A stretch of 34,061 bases of DNA from an uncultured Pseudomonadota bacterium (GTDB lineage Bacteria; Myxococcota_A; UBA9042; CAIXZC01). The DNA lies in the NCBI GenBank assembly GCA_937884235.1, contig CALGBT010000815.1:1-34061 (forward strand), in the 5' to 3' direction. Below the pieces are notes generated by a model, which made no database searches, had not been told where the DNA came from, and was given only the letters and a program-made list of their open reading frames with translations. The translations under genes and the position numbers were made by a program. Positions 4,789 to 34,061 of this stretch are shown one piece after another (position 1 is the first letter of the stretch; every line of letters starts with the position of its first letter).

Positions 4789-7422
4789 ATGATGACCCGC
4801 ACGTGCTTCCTGGTTATGGGCCTGTCTCTAGCCTGTTCGTCGACCAATGCCAACATTGATTCGTCTGGGGCGCCGGGCGACGACGTTGTCTTTGTGGCCG
4901 ACGCCAGGGCCCCGGAGGGGGACCAGCGGTCACCACATGGCAAGGAGACGTTCACCGACGATATCCTGGTGGAGGGTGACAGTTCCTGGTCTCCAGGCTC
5001 GCCCGACGTCTCCCCAGAGCTCACCTTCGACGTCGCCCCCGACCTGCCCCCGGTAGCAGATGCCGCGGAGGAGCCGGACCTGCCAGTGGGTGAAGACGCC
5101 GTTGAAATGAATGCAGAACCAGATGTCCCGGTCATCTCCGGAGCCATCGAGGAGCCCTTTGATGACGACTCCATGTCCGACCCTGCCGCGACCACTGCCC
5201 TGTGGGGTACCAACAGCACTTTGACCCCTGCTGCGGCTGGTTTTGGTGACGGTAGCGACGGCGAGTTCGCACCGGTCTCTGACGTCATCCTGGATACCGC
5301 CAACGGCCCCTTCCAGTACACCTCCGTTCACATTCCCGAGGACGTTACGGTCTCGGCATCTGGCATCGCCCCGCTTGAAATCCTGGTGCAGGGTGAGGTC
5401 GATATTGCAGGTCTTATCACGGTTGCCGGCGACAACGGCGATGATGCCCTCGGCATCGATGGCGGCAATTCCCCTCTGGGTGGGGCCGGCGTGGCGGGAG
5501 GCTCCAATGGCGGCAGCGGCGGCGCCGGTGGCCTGGAGGCCGGGACGGACGGTGAAGGCATGGGGCTGGGAACCGGAGGAGTGTCCACCGCCATCGTGAC
5601 CTTCGTCTCCCCCGGCGGTGGCGGCGGATTTGGTGCGTTCGGGGCCGACGGCATGGCGTTCAATGCCAACGCCGCTGGCAGCGGCGGACCCGACTACGGC
5701 ACCAGCGCTCTGGTGGACCTGGAAGGTGGCTCGGGTGGCGGTGGCGGAGGCCCCTACGACCGCACCCCAGGGGACCCCGCCGGGGGCGGTAACGGAATCG
5801 TCGACATCGATGATGCTCCTGGTGCCGGCGGCGGCGGTGGCGGCGGTGCGGTGGCGCTGCGCGCCGGCAGCTCCATTAACATCAGCGGACGGATCGATGC
5901 CGACGGTGGCGACGGCGGCATCGGTGATTTCTCTGGCGGTGGCGGTGGCGGCAGCGGCGGGGCAATCCTCCTGGAGACCGCGGCAGAGTTGACTCTCGCC
6001 CAGGGGCTGCTCTCAGCCCGCGGCGGCAGAGGCAACATTTGCACCGATTCCAATCAACTGGCGTGGTGCTATGGCGGCGACGGCGGCGGTGGCCGCATTG
6101 TGCTGCGCACTGGTATCCCCATGACCGACGGCATTGTCAAGAACCCGGTACCGGTACCAACCTGGGCGCCGACCCAGGGAGGCGTAGACGGTGGGACCGG
6201 GGTTGACGGCGCCTTTGCGCCCCTGGCGGACATCGAACTCGATACCAACGGCGGGCCGTATTTCTTCAGTAGCGTTACTATCCCGGCAGGAGTGACCGTC
6301 ACCGCGGTGGGAGACCAGCCGCTGCGTGTCTACTCCCAGGGCAACCTGGATGTGCTGGGCACCATCGATGTCAGCGGTTACCAGGCCGGCACTGCCTATT
6401 CCATGTGCTGTTCGCAACCTGGACCGCCGGAGGCAGGTGCCGGCGGTCTCCCCGGCCCCGGTGGTTACCGCGGCGGCACGGGCGGCCTAGCCGGCGACGG
6501 CGAGGGCGGTTCCGGCCCGGGGGGCGGTGCAGGTTCGCTGGGCTCCGGCTCACCTGGGGCTGGGGCTTTCGCCGGGGGCGGCGGGGGCGGCGGTTACGGC
6601 GAAATCGGCCAGGTGGGAGGCTGCCCGGAAGAGGCCGCGGGCGGCCCCGTCTATGGTGTCCATTCGCTGGAGCCGCTGGAAGGCGGTTCCGGAGGCGGAG
6701 GAGCAGGCTGGACCAATGTCGCCGGACCTAACCCCGGCTCGGGCGGAGGCGGAGGGGGCGGCGCAGTGCACCTGCAAACCGCCTCCATGCTGCTCATGCA
6801 GGGCACTATCCGCAGCAACGGCGGTACCGGCGGGGTCAACACGGGCAGCGGCACCGGCGGGTCCTTCGGAGCCGGCGGCGGAGGCGGCAGCGGCGGGGCG
6901 ATCCTGGTCAAGGCCCACTCCGTCAGAGATTATGGCATCTATGAAGCAATTGGTGGAGGGGCCGGGGATATCAAACAGGGCGGGGGATGCAGCAGCACGG
7001 TTGATGTGCCGGGCCAGGGTCGCGGTGGACATGGAGGCGAGGGCCGCATTCGCTTCGAAACTGACGTGCCAGTGGGTTTCGTCTACCCCGTTGACGGTTC
7101 GTTCCTGGTGGACGAATACTCCGCCGAGTACCAGAAGAAGGCGGTTTCACTCTTCTACGATACCGGCGTGGACTGCCCCGACTACGGAGAACCCGCACTG
7201 GTACCCGCTCCATTGGCGAACAAGGTCATCTTCAGCATCCAGGGAGCCCCGGGCAGCGGAGGAGTGCCCGACGCTGGCAACGCCACCCCCTGGACCAACA
7301 GTATTGATGCCGTCGATTGCCACCGCTTCATCCGCTTCTCGGTGGAGTTCAAGACGTGGGGCCCTGGCGACCCGCTCCCGGCTCTGGAGGGTGTCACGCT
7401 GCCCTTCACCTACTCTCCCTGA
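4789..7422 (+). CDS. glycine-rich secreted lipoprotein with two tandem ~290-aa modules (putative beta-helix, GGA[IV]-motif type)
   Basis: GGAGGG RBS. Lipobox LSLAC-SS followed by an acidic/proline linker. Module 1 (aa ~154-440) and module 2 (aa ~467-756) align motif by motif. The motifs are DGxFAPxxDxxLDTxxGP, xxVTVxAxG, LEGGSGGGG, GGGGGGGAVxLxxxS, GGGGGSGGAIL and GGxGRIxxxT. A ~120-aa non-glycine C-terminal domain follows. Confidence 0.8.
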   Translation: MMTRTCFLVMGLSLACSSTNANIDSSGAPGDDVVFVADARAPEGDQRSPHGKETFTDDILVEGDSSWSPGSPDVSPELTFDVAPDLPPVADAAEEPDLPVGEDAVEMNAEPDVPVISGAIEEPFDDDSMSDPAATTALWGTNSTLTPAAAGFGDGSDGEFAPVSDVILDTANGPFQYTSVHIPEDVTVSASGIAPLEILVQGEVDIAGLITVAGDNGDDALGIDGGNSPLGGAGVAGGSNGGSGGAGGLEAGTDGEGMGLGTGGVSTAIVTFVSPGGGGGFGAFGADGMAFNANAAGSGGPDYGTSALVDLEGGSGGGGGGPYDRTPGDPAGGGNGIVDIDDAPGAGGGGGGGAVALRAGSSINISGRIDADGGDGGIGDFSGGGGGGSGGAILLETAAELTLAQGLLSARGGRGNICTDSNQLAWCYGGDGGGGRIVLRTGIPMTDGIVKNPVPVPTWAPTQGGVDGGTGVDGAFAPLADIELDTNGGPYFFSSVTIPAGVTVTAVGDQPLRVYSQGNLDVLGTIDVSGYQAGTAYSMCCSQPGPPEAGAGGLPGPGGYRGGTGGLAGDGEGGSGPGGGAGSLGSGSPGAGAFAGGGGGGGYGEIGQVGGCPEEAAGGPVYGVHSLEPLEGGSGGGGAGWTNVAGPNPGSGGGGGGGAVHLQTASMLLMQGTIRSNGGTGGVNTGSGTGGSFGAGGGGGSGGAILVKAHSVRDYGIYEAIGGGAGDIKQGGGCSSTVDVPGQGRGGHGGEGRIRFETDVPVGFVYPVDGSFLVDEYSAEYQKKAVSLFYDTGVDCPDYGEPALVPAPLANKVIFSIQGAPGSGGVPDAGNATPWTNSIDAVDCHRFIRFSVEFKTWGPGDPLPALEGVTLPFTYSP

Positions 7423-11879: not shown

Positions 11880-14800
11880 CTACCACTCAACATAGACGAC
11901 ACCGTTGGCACCTTTGCCGCCCGTGGGGCGACTGCCGTTGTAGCCGCCGGCGCCACCGCCGGAGCCATGTCCTTGACCGCCTTTGCCGGACCAACTCGCA
12001 CCGCCGTTGCCAGCAGTGGGGCCGGCCCCGTCGATGAGTAGGCCGCCGGCACCGCCGCCGCCGCTATGCGAAGAGGAGCCCGCAGCCCCGCCGGCCCCGG
12101 CAGTCAACGAGGCCAGCACAGCCCCGGCCAGGTTGTCAAAATGACCGCCACTGCCGCCCGAATAGGTGCAACCGTTCTGGCCGGCCGACCCGCCCTGGCC
12201 ACCCTTTCCTGCGCAGCCGGAATTGCCGGCACCGCCACCACCGCTGCCGCCATTACCCCCACCCGAGCCATTGGTATTCCCGCCGTTGCCGCCACTGGCA
12301 CTCAAGTAGCCCCCGAAGGAAGAGGTTGCCCCCTTGCTGCCCGGCGCGTCGTTGGTGTTGGCAACACCTCCATTACCGCCACCGCCGACCGTCACGGTCA
12401 CCACGCCAGCAACGTCGTAATTGCCGTAGAGAACGTAGCCTGAACCGCCGCCGCCGTAGTGGCTGCCGGCACCACCACCACCGCCACCAACCACTACGAC
12501 CCGCACAGTGCTTACCCCGGGTGGCACGGTGAAAGTCTGAGCGCCGCCGGTGTAAGTGAAGACCTTGTTGCCGGGCTGGTACTCCACGCAAGTCCCCGTC
12601 TGGCAGACGATTCCACCATCCTGGGTGCAGGCCGTGCCATCAGCCACGGGAGTGTAGAGACAGCCGCTACCAGCCTCGCAAGAGTCGTTGGTACATTCCT
12701 GGCTATCATCGCAGGTCAGGGCCGGCCCGCCGACGCAGGCCCCCTGGCTGCACTGATCCTGGGTAGTGCAGGCATTGGCATCATCGCAAGAGGCATCATT
12801 GGCGATGAAGGTGCAGCCCGCGGCAGGACTACAGCCATCGTCGGTGCAAGGGTTGCCGTCGAGACACTCAAGGGGTTCAGAACCGACACACACGCCGTCG
12901 ACGCAAGTGTCCGTCTTGGTGCACTGATTGTCGTCGTCACAGCTACCATCAATGGCCGTGTATTCGCAGCCGTTGGCGGGGTGGCAGGTATCGAGGGTGC
13001 AAGGATTGTCGTCATCACAATCGAGGGCACCGCCCGGTACGCAAGACCCATTGTCGCAAGCGTCACCAGTGGTGCACGCGTTGAAGTCTGTGCAGACCCC
13101 GGCGGTCGGCAAAAACTCGCAGCCCACGTTGGCATCGCAGCTATCGGCGGTGCAGATGTTACCGTCGTTGCAGTTGAGTTGCCCGCCGCCGGCGCATTGC
13201 CCCAATTCGCACTTCTCGCCCACGGTGCAGGCATCGCCATCATCGCAGGGAGCAGTATTGAAAGTGTGAATGCATCCCTGAAGCGGCGTGCAAGTATCAT
13301 TGGTGCACAGATTGTCGTCGTCGCAAGAGACCGCCTGAGTACCTTTGCAGGAACCGGCGCCGCAGATGTCGGCGAGGGTGCAGAGGTTGCCATCATCGCA
13401 GTCAGCTCCGTTAGCGGTGTGCACACAACCGGACTCCGGCGAGCACGAATCGTCGGTGCAGATGTTCTGATCATCGCAACCCAACGCACCGCTCCCCTGG
13501 CACTCGCCTTGAGCGCAAGTATCAACGGGAGTACAGATATTGCCGTCATCGCAGGGAGCAGCATTGTCGGCGTGAACGCAACCACCCGCAGGGTCGCAGG
13601 CATCGCTGGTGCACGGGTTCGCATCATCACAATCAAGCCACCCCTTGCCAACGCAAAGGCCACCAGAGCACAAATCGTTGAGAGTGCACGGGTTGCCATC
13701 GTCACATTTGCCGTCGTTGGGGACGTACTGACAGCCTTTCTTGGAATCGCAGGAATCGCTGGTGCAGTTGTTCTGGTCGTCGCAGGCCACCGCGATCTGG
13801 CCCTGACACTGGCCCTGGACACACGTGTCTGCCGCCGTGCAGAGGTCCTGATCGTCGCATGGTGCGCTGTTATGGGCGTACAGACAACCGCCCTGCGGAT
13901 TACACGAATCATTGGTGCAGACATCGCCATCATCGCAGTCTACGAGCCCCTCGAAAAGGCAATCACCGCCACCGCAATGATCGCCGAGGGTACAGTCGTT
14001 ACCATCGTCGCAGGGCTCAGCATTGGGCACGAAGGTGCAACCGCTGTTGTCGTCGCAGCTATCGTCAGTGCAGCCATTGGCATCGTCGCAAACCACCGGC
14101 ACCCCGCCCCCGCATTCGCCTTCGAAACAGGCATCACCCACGGTGCAAGGGTCGCCATCATCGCAGGCGAAACCCTGGTGATCCGGCACCAGTGCACATT
14201 CGCCCGTCCCCGGGTCACATGATGCCTTGACGCAAACTCCGTCAGGCCCTTCCGGTGCGGGGCAGGTCACCACCGTTCCCGGATCCACAAAGCACTGGTA
14301 AGGCAACTTGTCGAGTTGGCAGAAGAGCGTCCCGTTGCAAAGGTCACCATCTTCCAGAACAGCACAGTCGGCGTTGTCCTGGCATTCGCAGTCCACCGCA
14401 AAACCACTGCACTCGCCCTGGCTGCACTGGTCGTTGACGGTGCAAGGGTCACCATCATCGCAGGGCCCGGCGTTGAACTCCGCAGTGCACCCGCCAAGAC
14501 CATTGCAAAGATCGTCAGTACATGGATTGTCGTCGTCGCAGACAATGGGCAACCCGGTGCAGACGCCAGCTTCGCAGTGGTCACCCACGGTACAAGAGTC
14601 ACCATCCGCACACTCACCTTCCGAGAGGACTTGATGATCGCAACCCGCCTCTCCCATGCAGGAATCCTTGGTACAGGGGTTATCGTCATTACAAGGATTG
14701 ATGTAGTCCCCCTCCACTGCATTGGGTTCGTCGACCTCGCCATCGCAATCGTCGTCGATACCGTTGCATGATTCCAATTCCGGGACCGTGGCATCACAGT

Positions 14801-15533
14801 CAGTGAGACCCGCTTCGGCACAGAACCGCATGCCTTGACAGGTACCTATTTCATTAGCCACTTCACAGCCGGTCCAGAGCGACAACTCCACGGATCTTGA
14901 GGTGCAGGGGCAGACTCCGGCATCGGCAACACACTGCATGGTGGCGATGCCGTCCACGGTCTGGGCATCAACGCATGAAAAACCCCAGGGACAATCGCTG
15001 CCTTCAGCACAAACACTACCGCAGAACGCACCTTCGTCGCCGTAGTCCACGCAAACGTCCTCGGCACCGCTGGGACTCTTGCAGCTATCGCCACCATTGC
15101 ACGGCTTGCAGAGATTCGAGACATCGGACACGCAAATATAGACCACGTCGGGGTCAGCACCCGCCACCTGCTTGCACGACCATCCCGGGGGGCAATCCTC
15201 CTGGCAAGGAACCGTGCAAACCGCCTCTCCCATGTGCTCCACACACCAGCTCGACTGGCAATCGCCATTGCCCACGCAGGGGTCCAGAAAACATCCGGTT
15301 CCCGGCTCACACTCGACAAATGGCGCGTCCGGTCCCGAATCGAAACTCAACTCCGGCTCGATATAGAGGTCGGGCTCATCAGAAGCTTCCCCTGAGGAAG
15401 CCTCGTCCGGGACCGCAGATACGTCAGTCGTCGGGGTCGCATCCGGAACGTCGGCAACAGTAATTGTTGTCCCACCATTGTTGCAGGCAAAAAACATCAG
15501 AGTTGCGGCAAACAAAAAGCCAGTATTGCGCAT
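11880..15533 (-). CDS. giant cysteine-rich repeat lipoprotein, paralog 1 (C-terminal glycine-rich domain)
   Basis: ATG with GGAGG upstream. Lipobox MFFAC-NN followed by an acidic linker. Cys-rich head ends in CNGIDDDCDGEVDE. There are 12 bipartite 51-aa repeats (CDDGNxCTxxDxCxxGxC + CDDxNxCTxDxCxxxxGC). The C-terminus VFTYTGGAQTFTVPPGV...GGGGGG is a glycine-rich domain. Total length is 1217 aa. Confidence 0.92.
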   Translation of the reverse strand: MRNTGFLFAATLMFFACNNGGTTITVADVPDATPTTDVSAVPDEASSGEASDEPDLYIEPELSFDSGPDAPFVECEPGTGCFLDPCVGNGDCQSSWCVEHMGEAVCTVPCQEDCPPGWSCKQVAGADPDVVYICVSDVSNLCKPCNGGDSCKSPSGAEDVCVDYGDEGAFCGSVCAEGSDCPWGFSCVDAQTVDGIATMQCVADAGVCPCTSRSVELSLWTGCEVANEIGTCQGMRFCAEAGLTDCDATVPELESCNGIDDDCDGEVDEPNAVEGDYINPCNDDNPCTKDSCMGEAGCDHQVLSEGECADGDSCTVGDHCEAGVCTGLPIVCDDDNPCTDDLCNGLGGCTAEFNAGPCDDGDPCTVNDQCSQGECSGFAVDCECQDNADCAVLEDGDLCNGTLFCQLDKLPYQCFVDPGTVVTCPAPEGPDGVCVKASCDPGTGECALVPDHQGFACDDGDPCTVGDACFEGECGGGVPVVCDDANGCTDDSCDDNSGCTFVPNAEPCDDGNDCTLGDHCGGGDCLFEGLVDCDDGDVCTNDSCNPQGGCLYAHNSAPCDDQDLCTAADTCVQGQCQGQIAVACDDQNNCTSDSCDSKKGCQYVPNDGKCDDGNPCTLNDLCSGGLCVGKGWLDCDDANPCTSDACDPAGGCVHADNAAPCDDGNICTPVDTCAQGECQGSGALGCDDQNICTDDSCSPESGCVHTANGADCDDGNLCTLADICGAGSCKGTQAVSCDDDNLCTNDTCTPLQGCIHTFNTAPCDDGDACTVGEKCELGQCAGGGQLNCNDGNICTADSCDANVGCEFLPTAGVCTDFNACTTGDACDNGSCVPGGALDCDDDNPCTLDTCHPANGCEYTAIDGSCDDDNQCTKTDTCVDGVCVGSEPLECLDGNPCTDDGCSPAAGCTFIANDASCDDANACTTQDQCSQGACVGGPALTCDDSQECTNDSCEAGSGCLYTPVADGTACTQDGGIVCQTGTCVEYQPGNKVFTYTGGAQTFTVPPGVSTVRVVVVGGGGGGAGSHYGGGGSGYVLYGNYDVAGVVTVTVGGGGNGGVANTNDAPGSKGATSSFGGYLSASGGNGGNTNGSGGGNGGSGGGGAGNSGCAGKGGQGGSAGQNGCTYSGGSGGHFDNLAGAVLASLTAGAGGAAGSSSHSGGGGAGGLLIDGAGPTAGNGGASWSGKGGQGHGSGGGAGGYNGSRPTGGKGANGVVYVEW
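12630..14693 (-). repeat. in-frame tandem coding repeat array, 153-nt (51-aa) period, 12 units, split by a 75-aa insert
   Basis: The first Cys of the A half-repeat falls at aa 457, 508, 559, 610, 661, 712, 763, 814, 865 and 916, exactly 51 apart. Two more units precede the insert. Confidence 0.9.
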
Positions 15534-15694
15534 GAGGTGCCTCCGTAATCGTCACGCGATAGTACAGTCCGCGAGCCATTGCTGCAAGTCAGGCACCACG
15601 CGGGCCCGGTCGATTTTTTGTGCTTCTGCCCCTGCTCCTCCCGATATAGAGGATGGAGCAATCCTGCCCCAGCGACCGCAGCAAGGAGGCATCC

Positions 15695-16252
15695 ATGATC
15701 TTTCAGTGGACCATTCTGCTACTCATTTCTCCCCTTATGATGCCGGCCATGCCGGCAGGACGACCGCCTGACCCCGGGGAACTGGTGATAACCGAGATCA
15801 TGGTGGACCCACATGCGACAAAGGACACCTACGGGGAGTACCTGGAGGTCACCAACGTCAGCGACGACCCAGTCCAACTGCTCGGTCTCATAGTCCGGGA
15901 TCACGACCGTGACTGGTGCCCGGTGACACGGCCACTGCTGGTCCCAGCCGGCCGGGCCGTGGTCTTTGCCCGCCGCTGGGAACCGTCGGCCAATGGCGGG
16001 TTCTTCCCCAGCTACCTCTGCACGGGCCATGCGCTCCACCTCAAAAACGACCGCGACAGCATCGTCCTCGACTGGTACGGGGTGGACATCGACGAGGTCA
16101 CCTATCGAGCCCGGGAGTGGCCGCTAGAACCGGGCAAAGCCATGGAACTGGACCGCTCCTGCTATGACTCGGCCATCAACGATGAACCGTCGGCGTGGGC
16201 CAGGTCACGCACCCCCATGCCCAGCGGCGACTTTGGCACACCCGGGAAATAG
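15695..16252 (+). CDS. secreted lamin-tail-domain (LTD) protein
   Basis: ATG 15695 lies after AAGGAGG. There is a hydrophobic N-terminus. LVITEIMVDPHATKDTYGEYLEVTNVSDDPVQLLGLIVRD is the characteristic LTD opening motif. Length is ~185 aa. Confidence 0.75.
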   Translation: MIFQWTILLLISPLMMPAMPAGRPPDPGELVITEIMVDPHATKDTYGEYLEVTNVSDDPVQLLGLIVRDHDRDWCPVTRPLLVPAGRAVVFARRWEPSANGGFFPSYLCTGHALHLKNDRDSIVLDWYGVDIDEVTYRAREWPLEPGKAMELDRSCYDSAINDEPSAWARSRTPMPSGDFGTPGK

Positions 16253-18812: not shown

Positions 18813-21800
18813 ATGAATCGTTTCGCCCTTGCCGCAGCCCTTCTGCTCGCAACAACTCTCCTGCTGGCGTGCAGCAACCAGGGGGGCGTAACACTCCTCA
18901 AGGATGCCATGGATTCCCAACAGGGGGACGGCAAAACTGTGCTGGACATGGCGGTCGAAGAGAGCCTCAGCGACCTGCGGCACGACGCCTGGACTGAGGA
19001 CAACCGTGGCGATACTGCCGACCTCCGCGACGAGCCCAGCGACTTCGGCACACCTTGCTCCGACAACGACGACTGCCTTTCCGGGCTGTGCATCCCGCAT
19101 CGGGGTGAGCTGGTCTGCTCCCATGAATGTGTAGAAGAGTGCCCCGACGGATTCATCTGCAGTGCCATCACTTCCGGCGGCCCGGACATGTTCTTTGCCT
19201 GCATCAGCCTCTACCCGTCACTCTGCTTGCCCTGCTCGTCCAGCGACGATTGCGAGCCGGGCCCAGGCGTGCCCACGGCCTGCGTCATCTACCCGGGCGA
19301 GGGCTCCTTCTGCGCCACCCAATGCACTGAGGAGATTCTCTGCCCCGAGGGAAGCTACTGCCTCGACGTCGATACCATGGAAGGGGGCAGCGGCAACTAC
19401 TGCACCAGGAACCAGGGCCCCTGCGAGTGTACTCAGTTCGCCATTGCCACGGGCCTCAAGACGCCCTGCTCGGTGACCAACGACTTTGGCACCTGCTCCG
19501 GCAACCGGGTATGCCAGGCCGATGGTCTGACCGAATGTAATGCAGCAGTCCCCAACGAGGAGTTCTGCAACGGCGCCGACGACAACTGTGACGGCCAGGT
19601 AGACGAGGGTACCTGCGTCGATGACAACCCTTGCACCCTGGATGAATGCCAGCCCAACCAAGGCTGCATCTTCACCCCACAGGAGGGGATGGAGTGCGAC
19701 GACGGCGACCCCTGCACGGTTGCCGAGCTGTGCCTGGCCGGCATCTGCCAGGGGTCGCCGGTGACTTGCAGCGATGACAACCAGTGCACCGATGACCTCT
19801 GCAGCATCGACGGTGGCTGCTCCTTTGAGCCCAACCAGGATGCCTGTGATGACGGTGACCCGTGCACCGTTGGCGATACCTGCAAGCTGGGACTCTGCAC
19901 GAGCACACCGATTGCGTGCAACTGCACGGTCGATGCCGATTGCAAAGCCCTGGAAGACGGCGATGCCTGCAACGGCACTCTTTTCTGCGACGTCTCGCAG
20001 ATCCCATATCAATGCCAGCCCGTGCCCGGCAGCGTCGTTGACTGCCCGGCACCGGAGGGAAAGAACAAGCTCTGCATGGCCGCCTGGTGCGACCCGTCGG
20101 ACGGCAGCTGCTCGCTGGTTCCAGCCAACGGGGGAAACCCCTGTGACGACGGCAATAAGTGCACTTATGGTGAGAGCTGCAGCGACGGCGCCTGTGTTGG
20201 CGGCAAAGCCCTCAACTGCAATGACGGCGATCCCTGCACCGATGACGCCTGCCAGGCGACGACAGGCTGCACAGCCACCTTCAATGACGCCCCCTGCGAT
20301 AATGGCAACTTCTGCACCACCAATGACTTCTGCGTCGCCGGGGAATGTACCGCGGGAGAAGCGCTCAACTGCAACGACAACAACGCCTGTACCAACGATA
20401 TCTGCAACCCGGTCAAGGGCTGCCTGCACACCAACAGCAGTCAACCCTGCGACGACCTCGACCCCTGCACCGAGCAAGACTCCTGCTCCGGCGGATTCTG
20501 CCTGGGCACCGTCCCCAAGAATTGTAACGACAACAACCCCTGCACGGACGACATCTGCGTTCCCCTGGCGGGTTGCTCCTACAACAACAACAGCAATCCG
20601 TGCAGTGACGGCAATGCCTGTACGGTGGCCGACAAGTGCGTCGGTGGTTCCTGCAATCCCGGGAACACCCTTGATTGCGATGACGGCAATGTCTGCACCA
20701 ACGACTCATGCTCGCCTGCGGAAGGCTGCCAGCATGCCCCCAACAAGTCCCCCTGCGACGACAACAACTCCTGTACCTCGCAGGACCAGTGCGCTGCGGG
20801 CAAGTGCATCGGCAGTGCCGATGTTGATTGCGACGATGACAATCCCTGCACCAAGGATCTCTGCCTCGCCAATGGTGGTTGCCAACACGAGAATGTGGTG
20901 GCACCGTGTAGCGATGGCAACCCCTGTACTGCGGGGGACATTTGCGCCAACGGCGAGTGTCAACCTGGAGACTCTGTGGATTGCGACGATGGCAACGTCT
21001 GTACTGCCGATTCCTGCAGCCAGAGCAATGGGTTGTGCCTCCATTCCCCCACCCCCGGGGATTGTGACGACAACAACCCGTGTACAACGAAGGACGCCTG
21101 CGGTGGTGGCAAATGCGTCGGCACTACTCCTCCCGATTGCAACGACCAGAACGTTTGCACTACCGACTACTGCGACCCGGCCAGTGGCTGCGTTCACCTG
21201 CTCAACAGCGCACCCTGTGATGACGACAACCTTTGCACCACCAAAGACCAGTGCAACCTCGGCGAGTGCGCCGGCGGTCCAGCCCTCTCCTGCACCGACG
21301 GAAATCCCTGCACCGACGACGGCTGCAACGCGGCGACCGGCTGCACCTTCACGCCCAACACCACACCTTGCGACGATGCCAACGCATGCACTGAGGGCGA
21401 TACCTGCAAGTCCGGGTGGTGCGTAGGCGTCGCCTCCAGTTGCGACGATCTCAACCCCTGCACCGCGGACAGCTGCGACCCGGGGGTCGGTTGCCTGCAC
21501 CTGCCTGCGGCGGGTGCTTGTGACGACAACGATGCTTGCACCGGCGATGATCTCTGCGCCAATGGACTGTGCGGCAGCGGGCCCGCAGTCAACTGCAACG
21601 ACGGCAACATCTGCACTGCCGACGCCTGCGACGCCGATACCGGTTGCACGCACACACCGACGGACGGAGGGTGCGACGACGACAATGCTTGCACCGTGGG
21701 TGATTCCTGCAATGAGGGCACCTGTCAAGCCGGGGGCATAGCCCTTGACTGCGACGACAGCGAGGTCTGCACCGATGATTCCTGCGACCCTGACCTGGGC

Positions 21801-22388
21801 TGCCAGCACACCAACAACGCAGTAGCCTGTGATGACAGCAACCAGTGCACCGTGGGCGATGTCTGTGCCATTGGCGTTTGCACCGCCGGGCCAGCTACCC
21901 TCGACTGCAGTGACAACGACCCCTGCACCACCGACACCTGCGACCCGAACCTCGGGTGCCAGCACTCGGGAGGCGGCTGCCTGCAATTCAGTCACGCCTT
22001 CAGCGCCGGCCCCACCACAGGAGCCGCCTGCAACAAGTGGAACGCCTTCCGGGCCACGCTGACTGGCAACTACAGCAAGGTCACCATCAAGGGCACTTAC
22101 GACCAGGTCGGCGTCTCCTGCACCGGGGCCAGCGCCAATGCCATCTGCAACTCGCTGCGCACCAAATCGGCCGGCTCCTGGAGCTGCGGCGGGCGGACCT
22201 GGCGCACTGGGGACTGCGGCGGTGACATCGAGGTCAACGCCAATGGCGACATGTGCAATTGTCCGGGCAACGGTTACACCGTGCGACCCTGCATAGACTA
22301 CCCGGGGTCGTCAAACCCCAACTGGGGCGGAGCCCTCACAGAGACCTGCAACAGTCCAACGCAAACCCTTGAACTGATTTGCCAGTAG
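18813..22388 (+). CDS. giant cysteine-rich repeat lipoprotein, paralog 2 (C-terminal 11-Cys module instead of glycine-rich domain)
   Basis: Lipobox LLLAC-SN followed by an acidic linker. The head is colinear with paralog 1 and ends CNGADDNCDGQVDE. There are 14 bipartite ~51-aa repeats with the same insert after unit 2. The last 136 aa (CLQFSHAF...TLELICQ) are unrelated to the other two tips. Confidence 0.92.
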   Translation: MNRFALAAALLLATTLLLACSNQGGVTLLKDAMDSQQGDGKTVLDMAVEESLSDLRHDAWTEDNRGDTADLRDEPSDFGTPCSDNDDCLSGLCIPHRGELVCSHECVEECPDGFICSAITSGGPDMFFACISLYPSLCLPCSSSDDCEPGPGVPTACVIYPGEGSFCATQCTEEILCPEGSYCLDVDTMEGGSGNYCTRNQGPCECTQFAIATGLKTPCSVTNDFGTCSGNRVCQADGLTECNAAVPNEEFCNGADDNCDGQVDEGTCVDDNPCTLDECQPNQGCIFTPQEGMECDDGDPCTVAELCLAGICQGSPVTCSDDNQCTDDLCSIDGGCSFEPNQDACDDGDPCTVGDTCKLGLCTSTPIACNCTVDADCKALEDGDACNGTLFCDVSQIPYQCQPVPGSVVDCPAPEGKNKLCMAAWCDPSDGSCSLVPANGGNPCDDGNKCTYGESCSDGACVGGKALNCNDGDPCTDDACQATTGCTATFNDAPCDNGNFCTTNDFCVAGECTAGEALNCNDNNACTNDICNPVKGCLHTNSSQPCDDLDPCTEQDSCSGGFCLGTVPKNCNDNNPCTDDICVPLAGCSYNNNSNPCSDGNACTVADKCVGGSCNPGNTLDCDDGNVCTNDSCSPAEGCQHAPNKSPCDDNNSCTSQDQCAAGKCIGSADVDCDDDNPCTKDLCLANGGCQHENVVAPCSDGNPCTAGDICANGECQPGDSVDCDDGNVCTADSCSQSNGLCLHSPTPGDCDDNNPCTTKDACGGGKCVGTTPPDCNDQNVCTTDYCDPASGCVHLLNSAPCDDDNLCTTKDQCNLGECAGGPALSCTDGNPCTDDGCNAATGCTFTPNTTPCDDANACTEGDTCKSGWCVGVASSCDDLNPCTADSCDPGVGCLHLPAAGACDDNDACTGDDLCANGLCGSGPAVNCNDGNICTADACDADTGCTHTPTDGGCDDDNACTVGDSCNEGTCQAGGIALDCDDSEVCTDDSCDPDLGCQHTNNAVACDDSNQCTVGDVCAIGVCTAGPATLDCSDNDPCTTDTCDPNLGCQHSGGGCLQFSHAFSAGPTTGAACNKWNAFRATLTGNYSKVTIKGTYDQVGVSCTGASANAICNSLRTKSAGSWSCGGRTWRTGDCGGDIEVNANGDMCNCPGNGYTVRPCIDYPGSSNPNWGGALTETCNSPTQTLELICQ
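19614..21977 (+). repeat. in-frame tandem coding repeat array, ~153-nt period, 14 units, split by a 75-aa insert
   Basis: The A-unit first Cys falls at aa 444, 495, 546, 597, 648, 699, 751, 802, 853, 903, 954 and 1006. Spacing is 51 aa except three steps of 52, 50 and 52. Confidence 0.9.
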
Positions 22389-31198: not shown

Positions 31199-31297
31199 GC
31201 ACCTCGTGGCATCGGGAACGGTCCGGCGACCACCTGTCGCGGTGAGCATCATACTCATTTGAGGTGATTATTCAATCGGTGGGACGCAGACTCGGAC

Positions 31298-34061
31298 TTA
31301 GTAGGTGACCTTGATCTGGCCATGCCCCATGCGGACATCAGCCGTGGTGCTGCTCGCGGTAACACCCCCCACGTAGGAGGACCCGCCTCCACCGCCGCCA
31401 CCGCCGCAGTTCTGGTGGCCGCCGCCACCGCCACCGTAGTATCCGCCGCCGCCGGAGCCAGCGCTGCCGCACACATCACCGTCAGCCTCCCCCGCTCCCT
31501 TGCCACCCTGGCCAAGTTCCCCGGCAGTGCCAACGATGTAGTCGCAGCATGCAAGCCCCGTTGCCCCGGCCGCGCCGCCGCCAGCCTGCGTCCCCGCCTT
31601 CCCCCCTCTCCCGGGGGGCTGGTTGGGAATGCTGTCTGTTCCATCCTGGCCCGAAGTGCCGCCACCGCCGCCGCCGACTCCGCCCGTCCAGCCGCCAGAG
31701 CCGAAGCTGTATCCCGCGTGCCCGCCACCGCCGCCGGCAACGATCTTGCGGTCGCTCAACGCGGTGCCGCCGACCCGCACATCCGAGCCGCCGCCACCCC
31801 AGCCTTTGGCCCAGGAACTGACGTTCTTGCCGCCACCGTTCCAGCCCCCGGCACTACCTTTGCCCCCCACATAGAGGTGCAGAATCTGGCCGGGGGTGAC
31901 CGCCAGCGTACCAGTGGCCTTGCCACCCTTGCCGCCGTCGGGTACTTCGAAGCCATTACCTCCACCCTGTGCGCCATAGGCTTCAACCACCACCGACTTG
32001 ACACAAGGCGGCACCGTCCAGTCCTGCGTTCCGCCAGTGTAATCAAAGGTAATGGAGCCGGTCTCGCAGGCATCGATACACTCACCAGCCCAGCACTCCA
32101 GATCCTGGCCACACTCCGTACCGTTTGCCACCGGCACAAACTGACAGCCAGCCCCGGGGGCGCACGCATCGTCAGTGCACCCATTGGCGTCATCGCACTC
32201 CACCGCAATCCCCGGCTGACACTGGCCCGCACCACAGATGTCGCCATCGGTGCAGGCGTCGGCATCATCACAAGGTGCGGTGTTGGGAGTGTTCACACAG
32301 CCATCGACGGGGTGGCAGGAATCCGTGGTGCAAAGCTCATTGTCGTTGCAGCTGATCCCGGCCCCACCACCACACACGCCCCCGGCACAGAATTCATTGA
32401 CGGTACAGGCATCACCGTCGTCGCAGGGGACCGTATTGGGCACGTGCACACACCCGGCAACGGCATCGCAAGAATCATCTGTACACAAGTCGTCATCGTC
32501 GCAATCCAGGCCCGGACCGGCCTTGCACATGCCCCCTCCGCAAGCGTCGGCAACGGTACAGGCATTACTGTCATCGCAGGGCGCGGTGTTGTTCAGGAAT
32601 TGGCAACCGGTGTTGGGGTGACAGCTGTCGGTGGTGCACAGGTTACCATCTTTGCACTCCAGATTGCCGCTGCTGATACAATCCCCGAGGTGACAGTGGT
32701 CACCGGTGGTGCAAACGTCGGCATCGTCACAGGGGACGCTGTTGAGCAGGTGCAGGCAACCCACCGCCGGGTCACAACTATCGGTGGTGCAGAGGTTATC
32801 GTCGTCGCACCCGGGCGCAGTACTTCCCTTGCAAACCCCGGCAACGCAAGTGTCTACCAGCGTGCAGGCATTACCATCGTCACAGGCCGCCTCCTTGGGG
32901 ACAAACTGGCAGCCAAGTTCGCTGTCGCAGCTATCGTCGGTGCAGGGATTCTCGTCGACGCATGCCGCGGCCGGCCCCGGAGCGCATTCCCCGGCCAGGC
33001 AATGGTCCCCGACGGTGCACACATCACCATCCTGGCAAGGGGCCTGATTGGGCGTGTGGACACAGCCTGTATCCGGGTCACAGCTGTCATCCGTGCAAGG
33101 GTTATCGTCAGCACAAATTGCCGCGACGCCGGCGACACACTTACCGACCTGGCAACTGTCGCCGATGGTGCAAGCATCACCGTCATCGCACGCGAATTCA
33201 TCATGGTCCGGGATCAGACTGCACCCTCCCGCGGCCTCGAGGTCGCAAATCGATTGCTGGCAAATAGCATCAATACCGGTCGGAGCCGGACACTCCACCA
33301 CCGTCTCCGGCAGCACCACACACTGATAAGGCCACTTGTCCTTGTTGCAGCCTAACGTGCCATTGCAGAGGTCTCCGTCTTCGAACTGGGCACAGTCCTC
33401 GTCTGCCTGACAGTCACATGCCACCGGCGTCCCGAAACAACTGCCGTCCCCACAATAGTCACCGACTGTGCAGGCATCCCCGTCATCGCAGGCTGAAGTG
33501 TTGTTGGTGAACTCGCAGCCGCCAAAACCGTCGCAGGCATCATCGGTGCAGGGATTGCTATCATCACAGGCCACCGGGGAACCAGCGCAGACTCCCTCTG
33601 CGCAATGGTCACCGACGGTGCAAGCATCGCCATCAATGCACTCACCCGCGCTCAGCGCCTCATGAACACAGCCGGCCTCTCCTTTGCAGAGATCAGTGGT
33701 GCAAGCATTGCCATCGTCGCAGGGGCCCACATACTGACCCTCGTGGAATGTCCCCTCGTCCACATCACCATCACAGTTGTCGTCAACCCCATTGCAGACC
33801 TCGGCTGCGGGCACCTGGGCATCGCAGTCCCCCAGGCCATCGTCGAGGCAAACCCGCTGGCCCACACAGGCGCCAAAGTCGTTGGCCCGGGAGCAGGGGG
33901 TCCACAACCCCAGAGATACCGAGGTATCGGTGCAGGGGCAGACCCCCGCATCCGCCACGCACTGGACAGTGCTTACACCGTCCACCGTAACCGTCTCCAA
34001 ACAGGAGAAACCCCATGGGCAGTCCTCGTCAACGGCACACTTCGCCCCGCAGAAACTACCC
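31298..34061 (-). CDS. giant cysteine-rich repeat lipoprotein, paralog 3 (5' end beyond window; C-terminal glycine-rich domain)
   Basis: The frame stays open to nt 34061: upstream of the ORF-track TTG it reads GSFCGAKCAVDEDCPWGFSCLETVTVDG, colinear with paralog 1 GAFCGSVCAEGSDCPWGFSCVDAQTVDG. It carries CNGVDDNCDGDVDE, 9 bipartite 51-aa repeats and the same insert. The C-terminus is ITFDYTGGTQDWTVPP...AYGAQGGG...GGGGSDVRVGGTALSDRKIVAGGGGG. Confidence 0.92.
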   Translation of the reverse strand, partial: GSFCGAKCAVDEDCPWGFSCLETVTVDGVSTVQCVADAGVCPCTDTSVSLGLWTPCSRANDFGACVGQRVCLDDGLGDCDAQVPAAEVCNGVDDNCDGDVDEGTFHEGQYVGPCDDGNACTTDLCKGEAGCVHEALSAGECIDGDACTVGDHCAEGVCAGSPVACDDSNPCTDDACDGFGGCEFTNNTSACDDGDACTVGDYCGDGSCFGTPVACDCQADEDCAQFEDGDLCNGTLGCNKDKWPYQCVVLPETVVECPAPTGIDAICQQSICDLEAAGGCSLIPDHDEFACDDGDACTIGDSCQVGKCVAGVAAICADDNPCTDDSCDPDTGCVHTPNQAPCQDGDVCTVGDHCLAGECAPGPAAACVDENPCTDDSCDSELGCQFVPKEAACDDGNACTLVDTCVAGVCKGSTAPGCDDDNLCTTDSCDPAVGCLHLLNSVPCDDADVCTTGDHCHLGDCISSGNLECKDGNLCTTDSCHPNTGCQFLNNTAPCDDSNACTVADACGGGMCKAGPGLDCDDDDLCTDDSCDAVAGCVHVPNTVPCDDGDACTVNEFCAGGVCGGGAGISCNDNELCTTDSCHPVDGCVNTPNTAPCDDADACTDGDICGAGQCQPGIAVECDDANGCTDDACAPGAGCQFVPVANGTECGQDLECWAGECIDACETGSITFDYTGGTQDWTVPPCVKSVVVEAYGAQGGGNGFEVPDGGKGGKATGTLAVTPGQILHLYVGGKGSAGGWNGGGKNVSSWAKGWGGGGSDVRVGGTALSDRKIVAGGGGGHAGYSFGSGGWTGGVGGGGGGTSGQDGTDSIPNQPPGRGGKAGTQAGGGAAGATGLACCDYIVGTAGELGQGGKGAGEADGDVCGSAGSGGGGYYGGGGGGHQNCGGGGGGGGSSYVGGVTASSTTADVRMGHGQIKVTY
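32114..33721 (-). repeat. in-frame tandem coding repeat array, 153-nt (51-aa) period, 9 units, split by a 75-aa insert
   Basis: The A-unit first Cys falls at ORF-track aa 271, 322, 373, 424, 475, 526 and 577, exactly 51 apart. Two more units precede the insert. Confidence 0.9.

Follow-up and report, generated by a model that had tools for sequence, protein, structure and literature searches.

Three paralogous genes in the stretch of DNA analysed here (the window, 34,061 nucleotides) encode large cysteine-rich proteins, and the C-terminal ends of two of them are rich in glycine. An earlier note, made from the sequence, had read these ends as the domain Gly_rich, known from the animal receptor kinases ALK and LTK, and had pictured them as binding tips displayed on the disulfide-rich stalk of a lipoprotein. 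This raises the question of whether such ends are folded domains or low-complexity sequence, to which family they belong and what a bacterium may use them for. Demonstrated roles of the glycine-rich TNF-like/polyglycine-II (PGII) domain are confined to cytokine binding by ALK/LTK and host recognition by phage tail fibres; thousands of bacterial proteins carry a glycine-rich domain, and a described function was found for none of them.

Results

Architecture of the three paralogs

Paralog 1 (11880..15533, minus strand) is a complete gene, which according to its open reading frame and translation encodes 1217 aa arranged as putative lipoprotein signal, acidic linker, cysteine-rich stalk and glycine-rich head. 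The signal peptide (15483..15533, minus strand; MRNTGFLFAATLMFFAC), as read from the translation, has a lipobox-like end with Cys17. The stalk, together with a cysteine-rich membrane-proximal module, covers 12621..15308 (minus strand; approximately residues 76–971, both boundaries being approximate) and was delimited on the basis of 12 PF00526 stretches and a cysteine fraction of 0.15. A connector with a small cysteine hairpin (12549..12620, minus strand; DGGIVCQTGTCVEYQPGNKVFTYT) leads over to the head. In the AF2 model it contains two short strands (E4-7 and E10-13), and its motif PVA(D/N)GTxC...CxxGxC is common to many family members with different heads. The head itself, a Gly_rich_2 domain (PF21722), occupies 11883..12548 (minus strand; residues 996–1217); the interval 11883-12572, in which the glycine-rich end had been noticed, corresponds to residues 988–1217. 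Translation of 11880-15533 ends in ...KVFTYTGGAQTFTVPPGVSTVRVVVVGGGGGGAGSHYGGGGSG...GGGGAGGLLIDGAG...GANGVVYVEW*. Full-length homologs of paralog 1 exhibit 58% identity over 1225 aa (P0149) and 43% identity (P0181).

Paralog 3 (31298..34061, minus strand) is cut at its 5' end by the edge of the window, which leaves 920 codons visible. Its frame stays open as far as base 34061 and, when aligned with paralog 1, reaches about residue 170 of the latter; as it runs off the window end, the lipoprotein signal of paralog 3 itself is not visible. A full-length ortholog of 1085 aa at a syntenic locus (L159:7742-10999), whose tip is 86% identical, has the N-terminus MRTHWLWGVALILGC, which contains a lipobox. 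Translation of 31298-34000 yields the C-terminus ...SITFDYTGGTQDWTVPPCVKSVVVEAYGAQGGGNG...GQILHLYVGGKG...GGGGSDVRVGGTALSDRKIVAGGGGGHAG...GGGGGGGGSSYVGG...GQIKVTY*. The head (31301..32056, minus strand) extends from SITFDYTGG to the C-terminus and carries ALK_LTK_GRD (PF12810), the Pfam match proper covering 31358-31987 (minus strand). The glycine-rich tip that had been claimed for two of the three paralogs is thus present in paralogs 1 and 3, and the letters reported for paralog 1 agree with the translation. Paralog 2 (18813..22388, plus strand) is of the same lipoprotein and stalk type and bears a different head (21930-22385, plus strand) of 152 aa with 13 cysteines and 14% glycine. This tip has no match in Pfam or PHROG and is a singleton among 84 family tips clustered by BLAST.

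Comparison of the neighbours of stalk genes revealed no conserved partner gene pointing to a ligand. Downstream of paralog 3 lies a gene for a 544-aa lipoprotein. The idea that this protein is a conserved accessory factor or chaperone of glycine-rich heads was dropped, because the gene is absent beside other stalk genes and occurs only at the orthologous loci L159-L161. A glycine-rich lipoprotein encoded at 4789-7422 was ruled out as a member of the same superfamily by its negative scores against both tip profiles.

Stalk and probable lipid anchor of a modular family

Pfam detected Dicty_CTDC (PF00526) in 12, 16 and 10 stretches of paralogs 1, 2 and 3, with scores of 192, 223 and 178 bits, respectively (cut-off 27), and an E-value of 1.3e-57 for the 12 stretches of paralog 1. 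These 10–16 matches per protein and a stalk cysteine content of 15% bear out the disulfide-rich stalk described earlier. No NCBIfam match was obtained for any of the three paralogs. The lipobox is canonical in paralog 2 (...LLLAC), non-canonical at positions -3 and -2 in paralog 1 (...TLMFFAC) and reads ...LILGC in the ortholog of paralog 3; at least 68 of the 87 N-complete family members have a signal peptide that ends in cysteine. Judged by this sequence pattern, the paralogs are probably lipoproteins anchored to the membrane by an N-terminal lipid. The pattern agrees with the earlier assignment for paralogs 1 and 2 and for the ortholog of paralog 3, the N-terminus of paralog 3 itself lying outside the window.

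The stalk has 316 relatives in GTDB genomes, nearly all from uncultured Myxococcales/Myxococcota, and at least 15 loci encode it in one assembly. The assignment of the source organism to this group is based on the near-restriction of the stalk family to Myxococcales/Myxococcota MAGs; an ABC-F protein examined for the same purpose was uninformative, its best matches being no more than 47–55% identical and scattered across many phyla. Its C-terminal heads vary: the 84 complete tips include ALK_LTK_GRD (9), Gly_rich_2 (5), DUF4215 (13), Fibrinogen_C (4) and COLFI (3), as well as Laminin_G_3, Lectin_C, CARDB and Peptidase_M10 (2 each) and others, and RCC1/WD40 propellers are also found among the family heads. 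BLAST sorted the 84 tips into 66 clusters, which is a rough measure of head diversity only, since low-complexity masking splits the glycine-rich heads. Because the heads of the family also include enzymes and propellers (Peptidase_M10, RCC1/WD40), a function of the head as binding module is not universal in the family. Of the 146 newly retrieved representatives (P0137-P0282) within the best 150 Gly_rich_2-type matches, no more than 2 had a cysteine-rich stalk, and among the listed homologs of the paralog 3 head PF00526 was found only in P0018 and P0019. In P0018, the called gene is a shortened version of the paralog 3 ortholog. With GC-rich cysteine-repeat genes such as these, gene-calling programs can pick the antisense strand by mistake, with the result that the real protein is truncated in the annotation.

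Pfam identity and divergence of the glycine-rich heads

Both tips comprise about 225–255 residues, 35–37% of which are glycine (fractions of 0.37 in paralog 1 and 0.35 in paralog 3 versus 0.12–0.13 in their own stalks), and both start with FxYTGxxQxF/WTVPxxV. The tip of paralog 1 matches Gly_rich_2 with 57.4 (whole protein) to 62.2 bits (cut-off 24.3; E 9e-17) and covers positions 3–225 of the 226 profile positions. The tip of paralog 3 matches ALK_LTK_GRD with 55.0 bits in the whole protein (E 1.5e-14) and 58.8 bits when searched alone (E 1e-15; cut-off 24.5), covering profile positions 12–203 of 243. Significant Gly_rich-type matches, which the earlier note had proposed as a test, were thus found for both tips at more than twice the cut-off. 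The family named there was PF12810, which we take to be the one formerly called Gly_rich. This guess proved right for the tip of paralog 3 but not for that of paralog 1, to which the stated coordinates refer: the latter belongs to the sister family Gly_rich_2, and the Pfam search reported no PF12810 match in paralog 1 at E<=10.

Homologs of the paralog 3 head number more than 1552, nearly all with PF12810. For the paralog 1 head, 16 word-index homologs were obtained, and PF21722 is present wherever a domain is recorded for them; an exhaustive profile search returned 5108 cluster representatives at E<=1e-10. When each tip was searched as a single sequence against PDB sequences using phmmer, only compositional matches appeared (ARIH1 poly-Gly, GMC oxidoreductase) and therefore profiles were needed. 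Tandem repeats in the DNA are tiny, at most 25 nt, and hence microsatellite-type expansion of simple DNA repeats was rejected as source of the glycine runs. Both heads extend a domain family that is already known, and the architecture in which they occur is undescribed.

No similarity between the tips of paralogs 1 and 3 was detectable by BLASTP, and hhalign of the two family alignments (probability 97.7%, E 1.9e-12) covered only 71 N-terminal columns. The statement that the two tips are strongly diverged was accordingly an understatement. As the stalks of the paralogs are 39–47% identical and the tips are alike only in their first ~70 residues, different heads sit on paralogous stalks, and these heads would represent different subfamilies, Gly_rich_2 in paralog 1 and ALK_LTK_GRD in paralog 3. 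Conservation between orthologous heads is good (86–91% identity for those of paralog 3; in the case of paralog 1, 58% identity along the entire protein), and thus there is no sign of rapid arms-race variation as in phage receptor-binding tips.

Predicted fold of the heads

AF2 modelled the paralog 3 head with a pLDDT of 89.5, a pTM of 0.89 and 10 beta-strands. The model of the paralog 1 head reached a pLDDT of 78.9 and a pTM of 0.80 with about 10 beta-strands; here the alignment was shallow (17 sequences) and 42 residues (118–159 of the modelled fragment) remained below a pLDDT of 50. The glycine runs of the paralog 3 head attain a pLDDT of 98 and the stretches between them 70–85, while DSSP assigns neither helix nor strand to the runs. 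Disorder, which had been named as the finding that would speak against a domain, was not observed in either head, and the glycine runs are the best modelled segments.

A profile built from 61 sequences of the paralog 3 head retrieved nine distinct ALK/LTK/SCD-2 chains from the PDB sequences (E 1.1e-12 to 1.8e-9), with the glycine runs and the flanking strands being aligned. When the paralog 3 model was compared to the PDB using Foldseek, the top 21 matches were all ALK/LTK (E 1e-7 to 1e-5, probability 1.0), at TM-scores of only 0.41–0.47; for both heads together, TM-scores range from 0.25 to 0.47 and the rmsd is large. The paralog 1 model matched the Bxb1 tail tip (E 1.6e-5), the Pam3 fibre (E 2e-4, TM 0.45) and ALK/LTK structures (E 1e-4 to 1e-3). 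It also matched 227 viral BFVD models at E<=1e-3, some of which are annotated as tail fibre or minor tail proteins. The paralog 1 head also matches PHROG tail families (phrog_863, tail, E 8e-17), and sequence profiles match it weakly to the tail proteins of phages Pam3 and Bxb1. The postulated link to ALK/LTK hence holds for paralog 3, by profile (E 1e-12) as well as by its top 21 folds, and is weaker for paralog 1.

The models suggest a TNF-like beta-sandwich, the strands of which would run on into a lattice of packed glycine runs; by analogy, these runs presumably form polyglycine-II helices. When the heads of stalk-borne paralogs were aligned, high-confidence blocks were 56% and loop blocks 28% identical, with 14 versus 93 gap cells, a contrast that is partly circular because pLDDT tracks alignment conservation.

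Discussion

What might these heads do? In our view, the paralogs probably belong to a modular, lipid-anchored protein family of Myxococcota type, whose glycine-rich heads are most likely binding modules. The family plan would comprise a lipoprotein signal, a short acidic linker, a long disulfide-rich Dicty_CTDC stalk and one interchangeable C-terminal head, which the stalk would hold tens of nanometres off the outer membrane. The first and last strands of the domain would lie together in the sandwich beside the stalk, and consequently the glycine lattice and the variable loops should face away from the cell. Conserved glycine motifs would make up a rigid scaffold, whereas contact with an external ligand, perhaps a polymer or a structure on the surface of another cell, would be made by the variable loops that separate these motifs. 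Binding is proposed because this is the mode of action of phage tail-fibre tips with this fold and because the ALK domain binds its cytokine. The position at the tip of a stalk, shared with lectin-type heads, provides a circumstantial but coherent argument for an outward-facing binding module in bacteria.

Several other explanations were weighed. If the tails were disordered low-complexity sequence, i.e. a flexible spacer or a compositional artefact rather than a domain, one would understand their glycine content of 35–37%, the low pLDDT (<50) of residues 118–159 of the paralog 1 head and the purely compositional matches in single-sequence PDB searches. However, the scores of both tips against curated full-length Pfam domains exceed the cut-off more than twofold, and in the alignments the glycine runs are bordered by conserved beta-strand motifs. 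The runs themselves are modelled at a pLDDT of 98, the folds retrieved are specifically those of ALK/LTK and phage fibres, and tandem repeats in the DNA are short only. The Pfam, ALK/LTK profile, AF2 and Foldseek results effectively refute disorder, which we regard as extremely improbable. There is next to no chance that the genes are remnants of a receptor-binding protein of a prophage or tailocin, even though the matches of the paralog 1 head include models of phage tail fibres and minor tail proteins as well as PHROG tail families. The 34-kb window contains no phage structural, integrase or lysis genes, on which ground a prophage origin was rejected, and its neighbouring genes are of housekeeping and envelope type. 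Moreover, the N-terminus consists of a lipoprotein signal and a cysteine-rich stalk instead of a baseplate-attachment domain, other Myxococcota genomes have kept the protein over its whole length, and no phage genes, be they for tail or baseplate, were seen at the orthologous loci L159-L161.

In snow-flea antifreeze proteins, the flat faces that bind ice are formed by polyglycine-II bundles, a precedent for a materials-type module that uses the flat repetitive surface of its glycine lattice for ice or mineral binding or for matrix self-assembly. PPII/PGII bundle domains have been reviewed beside ALK and gp38 (PMC13243192), and COLFI (collagen-C-terminal-like) and fibrinogen-C heads occur elsewhere in the family. 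Yet, the heads are modelled as TNF-like and glycine-rich as in ALK and Pam3 gp24, not as a free PGII bundle, and are present in a single copy per protein, and we deem such a material role very improbable. Effector or enzymatic modules at the end of the stalk, either polymorphic-toxin-like cargo or hydrolases, are also quite improbable: the characterised relatives (ALK/LTK, Pam3 gp24, Bxb1 tail tip) are binding or tail-tip proteins and not enzymes, neither paralog 1 nor paralog 3 is followed by a small gene of immunity type, the 544-aa gene next to the latter on its downstream side is confined to orthologous loci, and Pfam, PHROG and NCBIfam gave no toxin or enzyme family match for the heads. 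These findings stand against the facts that polymorphic toxins typically join a conserved trunk to C-terminal modules that vary, that Peptidase_M10 ends two family members, and that Myxococcota Dicty_CTDC lipoproteins include teneurin-like toxins (bioRxiv 10.1101/2025.11.11.687626). Finally, the heads could mediate homotypic recognition of self or kin within the species, like TraA, rather than bind foreign ligands. A related phylum uses the same design of anchor, cysteine-rich stalk and distal head for this purpose (PMC3325183), the orthologous heads are conserved and not hypervariable, and the family is expanded within genomes. We nonetheless consider it unlikely, as a PA14 head, a MYXO-CTERM tag and NCBIfam matches to TraA-type repeat models are missing, the Pfam annotations of the window include no traB-like OmpA partner, and dozens of heads per genome, lectin-type folds included, are in better agreement with many external targets.

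We therefore prefer binding modules as exchangeable heads on stalk proteins. As a bolder extension, which we offer tentatively and with some doubt, each uncultured aquatic Myxococcota genome may encode at least 15 stalk-borne surface 'receptors' with swappable heads that recognise the surfaces of prey or partners, these heads being drawn from folds otherwise known from phage receptor-binding tips and animal extracellular proteins, such as glycine-rich domains of ALK and phage type, C-type lectin, fibrinogen-C, LamG and collagen-C-terminal domains. If true, this would be the first cellular function of the glycine-rich fold outside phages and animals, and would supply a concrete intermediate between phage tail-fibre tips and the ligand-binding domain of ALK/LTK. 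The modular surface-protein family of Myxococcota could be mined for recognition specificities and may inform on the kinship of the forms that the fold takes in bacteria, phages and animals.

Comparison with known systems

The glycine-rich (TNF-like plus glycine-rich, 'TG') domain of ALK/LTK/SCD-2 (PDB 7NX1, 7NX4, 7LRZ, 7N00, 7LIR) shares PF12810 with the paralog 3 head and is its exclusive top fold match, the resemblance to the paralog 1 head being weaker. Unlike the ALK/LTK receptors, the window proteins are bacterial, with a predicted N-terminal lipid anchor, and lack a transmembrane helix, kinase, EGF-like module, MAM/LDLa and heparin-binding region. In paralog 3, nothing follows the last strand of the glycine-rich domain, and besides ALK_LTK_GRD the only Pfam family found in it is Dicty_CTDC. 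The ligand cannot be ALKAL/Augmentor, and TM-scores are only about 0.45.

Pam3 gp24 (PDB 7YPX/7YFW) and the Bxb1 tail tip (9D93) are elongated and combine a TNF-like sandwich with a distal glycine-rich lattice, like the paralog 1 head. Pam3 gp24 recognises the host via its TNF-like and glycine-rich domain, in which the glycine motifs are conserved and the distal tip varies, and it was reported to be structurally similar to C. elegans ALK (PMC9608196). However, phage fibres are trimeric, are joined to the baseplate by an alpha-helical shaft and need a chaperone, whereas the window proteins have a disulfide-rich lipoprotein stalk, no chaperone-like neighbour and no phage context. The adhesin gp38 of Salmonella phage S16 and T-even phages (6F45) resembles the heads in operating principle only: as cited in PMC9608196 and PMC13243192, a polyglycine-II lattice of conserved motifs displays variable receptor-binding loops. 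The gp38 lattice is paired with a beta-helix and not with a TNF-like sandwich, and 6F45 is not among the Foldseek matches listed for either head model.

The same domain is present in thousands of other bacterial PF12810/PF21722 members from Bacteroidota, Pseudomonadota, Myxococcota and others, for which NCBI provides only the name 'glycine-rich protein'. Most of them pair it with PF00801/PF18911, PF18962, PF07589, PF07963 or PF07645, presumably PKD, a T9SS tail, PEP-CTERM, a pilin N-methylation site and EGF_CA, respectively. In the literature searched, we found no description of the function of bacterial PF12810/PF21722 members, nor of members that join lipoprotein signal, stalk and glycine-rich head.

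In overall design, the window proteins resemble the cell-surface receptor TraA of Myxococcus xanthus, which likewise combines an anchor, a rigid cysteine-rich repeat stalk and a distal variable head. The polarity is opposite, since the head of TraA is N-terminal and its MYXO-CTERM anchor C-terminal, as against a predicted N-terminal anchor in the window proteins, and TraA consists of a PA14 head and TIGR04201 repeats in place of a glycine-rich head and Dicty_CTDC. Paralogs 1 and 3 yielded no PA14 match in Pfam and no match at all in NCBIfam, and they end in ...YVEW and ...KVTY without a C-terminal tag. The TraA repeats have been likened to Pfam00526, and a model in which the stalk presents the head was proposed (PMC3325183). 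This precedent of a cysteine-rich repeat stalk presenting a head supports the anchor-stalk-head design suggested here.

Three predicted lipoprotein genes with cysteine-rich stalks

The window has a GC content of 61% and represents a bacterial chromosomal segment, in which Pfam annotation identified ordinary envelope and housekeeping genes. The neighbours encode an epimerase, a SecDF-like protein, a deoxynucleoside kinase, an FKBP, an ABC-F protein, a PspC protein, an alpha-amylase, a HisKA_3/LuxR two-component pair, a radical SAM protein and a TonB-dependent receptor. Three paralogous stalk-type genes are embedded here: P1 (11880-15533, minus strand, 1217 aa), P2 (18813-22388, plus strand, 1191 aa) and P3 (31298 to the window end, minus strand, at least 920 aa). 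The reading frame of P3 is open to base 34061, i.e. the gene runs past the window edge, and its first visible residues align with approximately residue 170 of P1. Tandem repeats in the DNA are trivial (all ≤25 nt). P1 is adjoined by a divergently transcribed gene (15653-16252, plus strand) for a 199-aa protein, which matches the Lamin Tail Domain (PF00932) with 36 bits (cut-off 34.3 bits).

P1 and P2 start with signal peptides ending in cysteine (…TLMFFAC and …LLLAC, respectively), followed by an acidic linker and the Cys-rich region, subsequently designated stalk. Pfam detected 12, 16 and 10 significant Dicty_CTDC (PF00526) stretches in P1, P2 and P3, respectively. Cysteine makes up 15% of the stalks, whose pairwise identities are 39-47%. 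At the level of the family, a Cys-terminated signal peptide was detected by regular expression in at least 68 of the 87 members with complete N-terminus, and a lipobox is visible by eye in several of the members missed. Lysine at position +2, which acts as inner-membrane retention signal in M. xanthus, occurs in none of the proteins. The proteins would be lipid-anchored in the outer membrane, and the stalk of ~900 residues, stiffened by disulfides, would project the head off the cell. This arrangement is modelled on the Myxococcus surface receptor TraA, for which a stalk projecting the head away from the cell has been proposed (PMC3325183).

Lipid anchoring of P3 is indicated by orthology. Database proteins P0017 and P0018 share 91% and 86% identity with the P3 head, and P0018 is located on JGI metagenome contigs syntenic with the window, which retain the order of a 544-aa lipoprotein, an HTH-thymidylate-kinase-like gene and a TonB-dependent receptor. 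In the P0018 entry (332 aa) the gene was called too short: the actual ORF comprises 1085 aa (L159:7742-10999), and the JGI caller picked an antisense ORF of 506 aa over it. As this full-length ortholog begins with MRTHWLWGVALILGC, P3 is, by orthology, a predicted lipoprotein as well. The entry P0017 (261 aa) probably suffered the same truncation, and database entries of the stalk family may be systematically fragmented. Very long antisense ORFs are present in these GC-rich Cys-repeat genes, in the window e.g. at 31322-33355 and 12459-14222 (both plus strand). The 544-aa predicted lipoprotein (…LLLLGAGC; 29624-31258, minus strand) follows P3 in the same orientation, 40 nt downstream. Pfam gave no match to this protein, and its score with EreA-type erythromycin esterase (17.9 bits, cut-off 750 bits) is below threshold. 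In the loci L159-L161, which are syntenic, it recurs with 71% identity, but it was not found beside other stalk genes.

P1 and P3 carry glycine-rich heads of two Pfam families

The tip of P1 encoded at 11883-12572 (minus strand) corresponds to residues 988-1217. Glycine accounts for 37% of this tip and for 35% of the P3 tip, and every string that the earlier note had quoted for the two tips is present in the translations. Its prediction of PF12810 applies to P3, which matches ALK_LTK_GRD (PF12810) with 55-59 bits (cut-off 24.5), but not to P1, whose match is the sister family Gly_rich_2 (PF21722) with 57-62 bits (cut-off 24.3), along the entire model (positions 3-225 of 226). We regard these domain identifications as nearly certain. 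BLASTP yielded nothing significant between the two heads. Profile-profile comparison aligned them with a probability of 97.7% (E 1.9e-12), but only over the first ~71 columns, comprising the FxYTG…VPxGV…GGGG…VxVGxGG strands. Hence, P1 and P3 did not obtain their heads by recent duplication.

The P3 head retrieved over 1552 relatives from the database (E≤1e-3), and PF12810 is recorded for nearly all of these. Exhaustive search with the P1-type profile returned 5108 cluster representatives at E≤1e-10, 156 at E≤1e-30 and 31,344 at E≤1e-3, the last number probably including compositional matches. The tip of P2 (21930-22385, plus strand; 152 aa, 13 cysteines) matched neither Pfam nor PHROG families, and no similar tip was found among the 84 family tips examined; judged by sequence comparison, it appears to be an orphan head.

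A further predicted lipoprotein of 877 aa (MMTRTCFLVMGLSLAC) is encoded at 4789-7422 (plus strand; local GC 0.69). A module (…DG.FAP..D..LDT..GP…SV.IP..VTV.A.G…) is duplicated within this protein, long runs rich in glycine come next, and neither Pfam nor NCBIfam gave a match. Negative scores with both tip profiles dismiss it as the same type of tip; it looks like a separate glycine-rich surface protein without family.

A constant stalk combined with interchangeable heads

When GTDB species representatives were scanned by pattern with P1, 316 relatives emerged, and MAGs of uncultured Myxococcales/Myxococcota (or "Deltaproteobacteria") contain nearly all of them. Of the 78 loci retained, 15 stem from assembly CAZFVN01 and 13 from CAZVFX01, and several have two genes in tandem. 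Together with the window these loci provided 98 stalk-type ORFs, 85 with complete C-terminus. Pfam analysis of 84 tips detected DUF4215 (13), ALK_LTK_GRD (9), Gly_rich_2 (5), Fibrinogen_C (4), COLFI and a MopE-type motif (3 each), Laminin_G_3, Lectin_C, CARDB and Peptidase_M10 (2 each) as well as one RCC1 and one WD40 propeller; head diversity in these loci was covered by such family-level counts. The glycine-rich domain is thus among the commoner heads, and the P3-type head profile picks up 14 tips from outside the window. All-against-all BLAST sorted the 84 tips into 66 clusters including 53 singletons, a number too high for the glycine-rich heads due to low-complexity masking. Many different heads directly follow the connector motif PVA[DN]GTxC…CxxGxC. 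Varied heads behind a common connector indicate that the family consists of a constant anchor-plus-stalk and interchangeable heads. Several of these heads are domains more familiar from extracellular proteins of animals, i.e. Fibrinogen_C, COLFI, C-type lectin, Laminin_G_3 and matrixin (e.g. loci L047, L054, L018, L027 and L052).

Conversely, the stalk is a rare partner of the glycine-rich domain. PF00526 is present only in P0018 and P0019 among the listed relatives of the P3 head. The best 150 Gly_rich_2-type matches include 146 newly returned representatives (P0137-P0282), of which only P0149 and P0181 possess the stalk. P1 shares 58% identity with P0149 over 1225 residues, head included, and 43% with P0181, which identifies the P1 type as a conserved orthologous group.

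The glycine-rich heads are predicted to fold

AF2 modelled the P3 head with pLDDT 89.5, pTM 0.89 and ten beta-strands (61-sequence alignment), and the P1 head with pLDDT 78.9 and pTM 0.80 from an alignment of only 17 sequences. The view that the tips are folded rather than disordered is upheld by these models, and disordered low complexity as rival is effectively refuted. The glycine runs RKIVAGGGGG, GGGYYGGGGG and GGGSSYVGGV are the most confident parts of the P3 model (pLDDT 98 each), the stretches between them the least confident (pLDDT 70-85). DSSP assigns neither helix nor strand to these runs, as would be expected of packed polyglycine-II helices in such a model. In P1, one 42-residue stretch (GSGGGNGGSGGGGAGNSGCAGKGGQGGSAGQNGCTYSGGSGG) has pLDDT <50. 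Within this only low-confidence segment are two cysteines (…GNSGC-AGKGG…GQNGCTY…; 12120-12245, minus strand, residues ~1097-1138), which are kept in the stalk-borne Gly_rich_2 heads (P1, P0149, P0181) and only partially retained in the remaining family members; they may close a loop through a disulfide.

The proposed kinship with the glycine-rich domain of the animal receptor kinases ALK/LTK was confirmed for the P3 head at two levels. Its sequence profile finds the ectodomain chains of ALK, LTK and C. elegans SCD-2 (E 1e-12 to 2e-9), and glycine-rich/TG domains of ALK/LTK occupy each of the first 21 places among the Foldseek matches of its model to the PDB (E 1e-7 to 1e-5, probability 1.0), followed by the fibre of phage Pam3. 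The P1 model finds its best PDB matches in the tail tip of Bxb1 (E 1.6e-5), in ALK and LTK (E 1e-4) and in the fibre of Pam3 (TM 0.45). TM-scores are modest throughout (0.25-0.55), i.e. these matches are evidence for the fold class, not for close superposition. In a viral structure library the P1 model matched 227 models (E≤1e-3), among them annotated tail fibre, minor tail and "glycine-rich domain-containing" phage proteins, and in PHROGs the P1 head matched a tail-category family (E 8e-17).

Proposed display of a binding head and comparison with phage adhesins

The N- and C-terminal strands of the head would lie together beside the stalk, a placement by which the glycine lattice and loops would face outward, where they may bind a ligand. 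A binding role is supported by the lectin-type heads at the same position in paralogs. We give modest preference to this display-and-bind mechanism. Homotypic kin recognition by the heads is unlikely. Use of the heads as effector or enzyme modules appears quite improbable, and a materials-type role marginally more so. Despite the phage proteins among the matches, it is hardly credible that the genes are a prophage remnant, and no phage context was found among the window genes. A conserved partner gene of the stalk genes was not found either.

Both domain families have curated Pfam entries and abundant members in bacteria and phages, to which the tips add. A description of this architecture, or of an expanded variable-head family in uncultured Myxococcota, was not found in the literature.

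Ten stalk-borne ALK-type heads aligned with P0017 and P0018 share the N-terminal strands, four glycine motifs (GGGGSDVR, VAGGGGG, GGGGGGYYGGGG and GGGGGSSY) and the C-terminal strand GxGxVxISW, while indels and substitutions cluster in the four inter-motif segments. The five closest paralog heads are 56% identical in high-confidence blocks versus 28% in loop blocks, with 14 versus 93 gap cells, a contrast that is partly circular since model confidence depends on alignment conservation. This scaffold/loop contrast agrees with the organisation of phage adhesins into conserved motifs and variable segments. A two-part unit of exactly the fold seen here, TNF-like plus glycine-rich, has been described for the Pam3 tail fibre, and the same paper points out that it resembles C. 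elegans ALK (7LIR) as well as S16 gp38 (PMC9608196).
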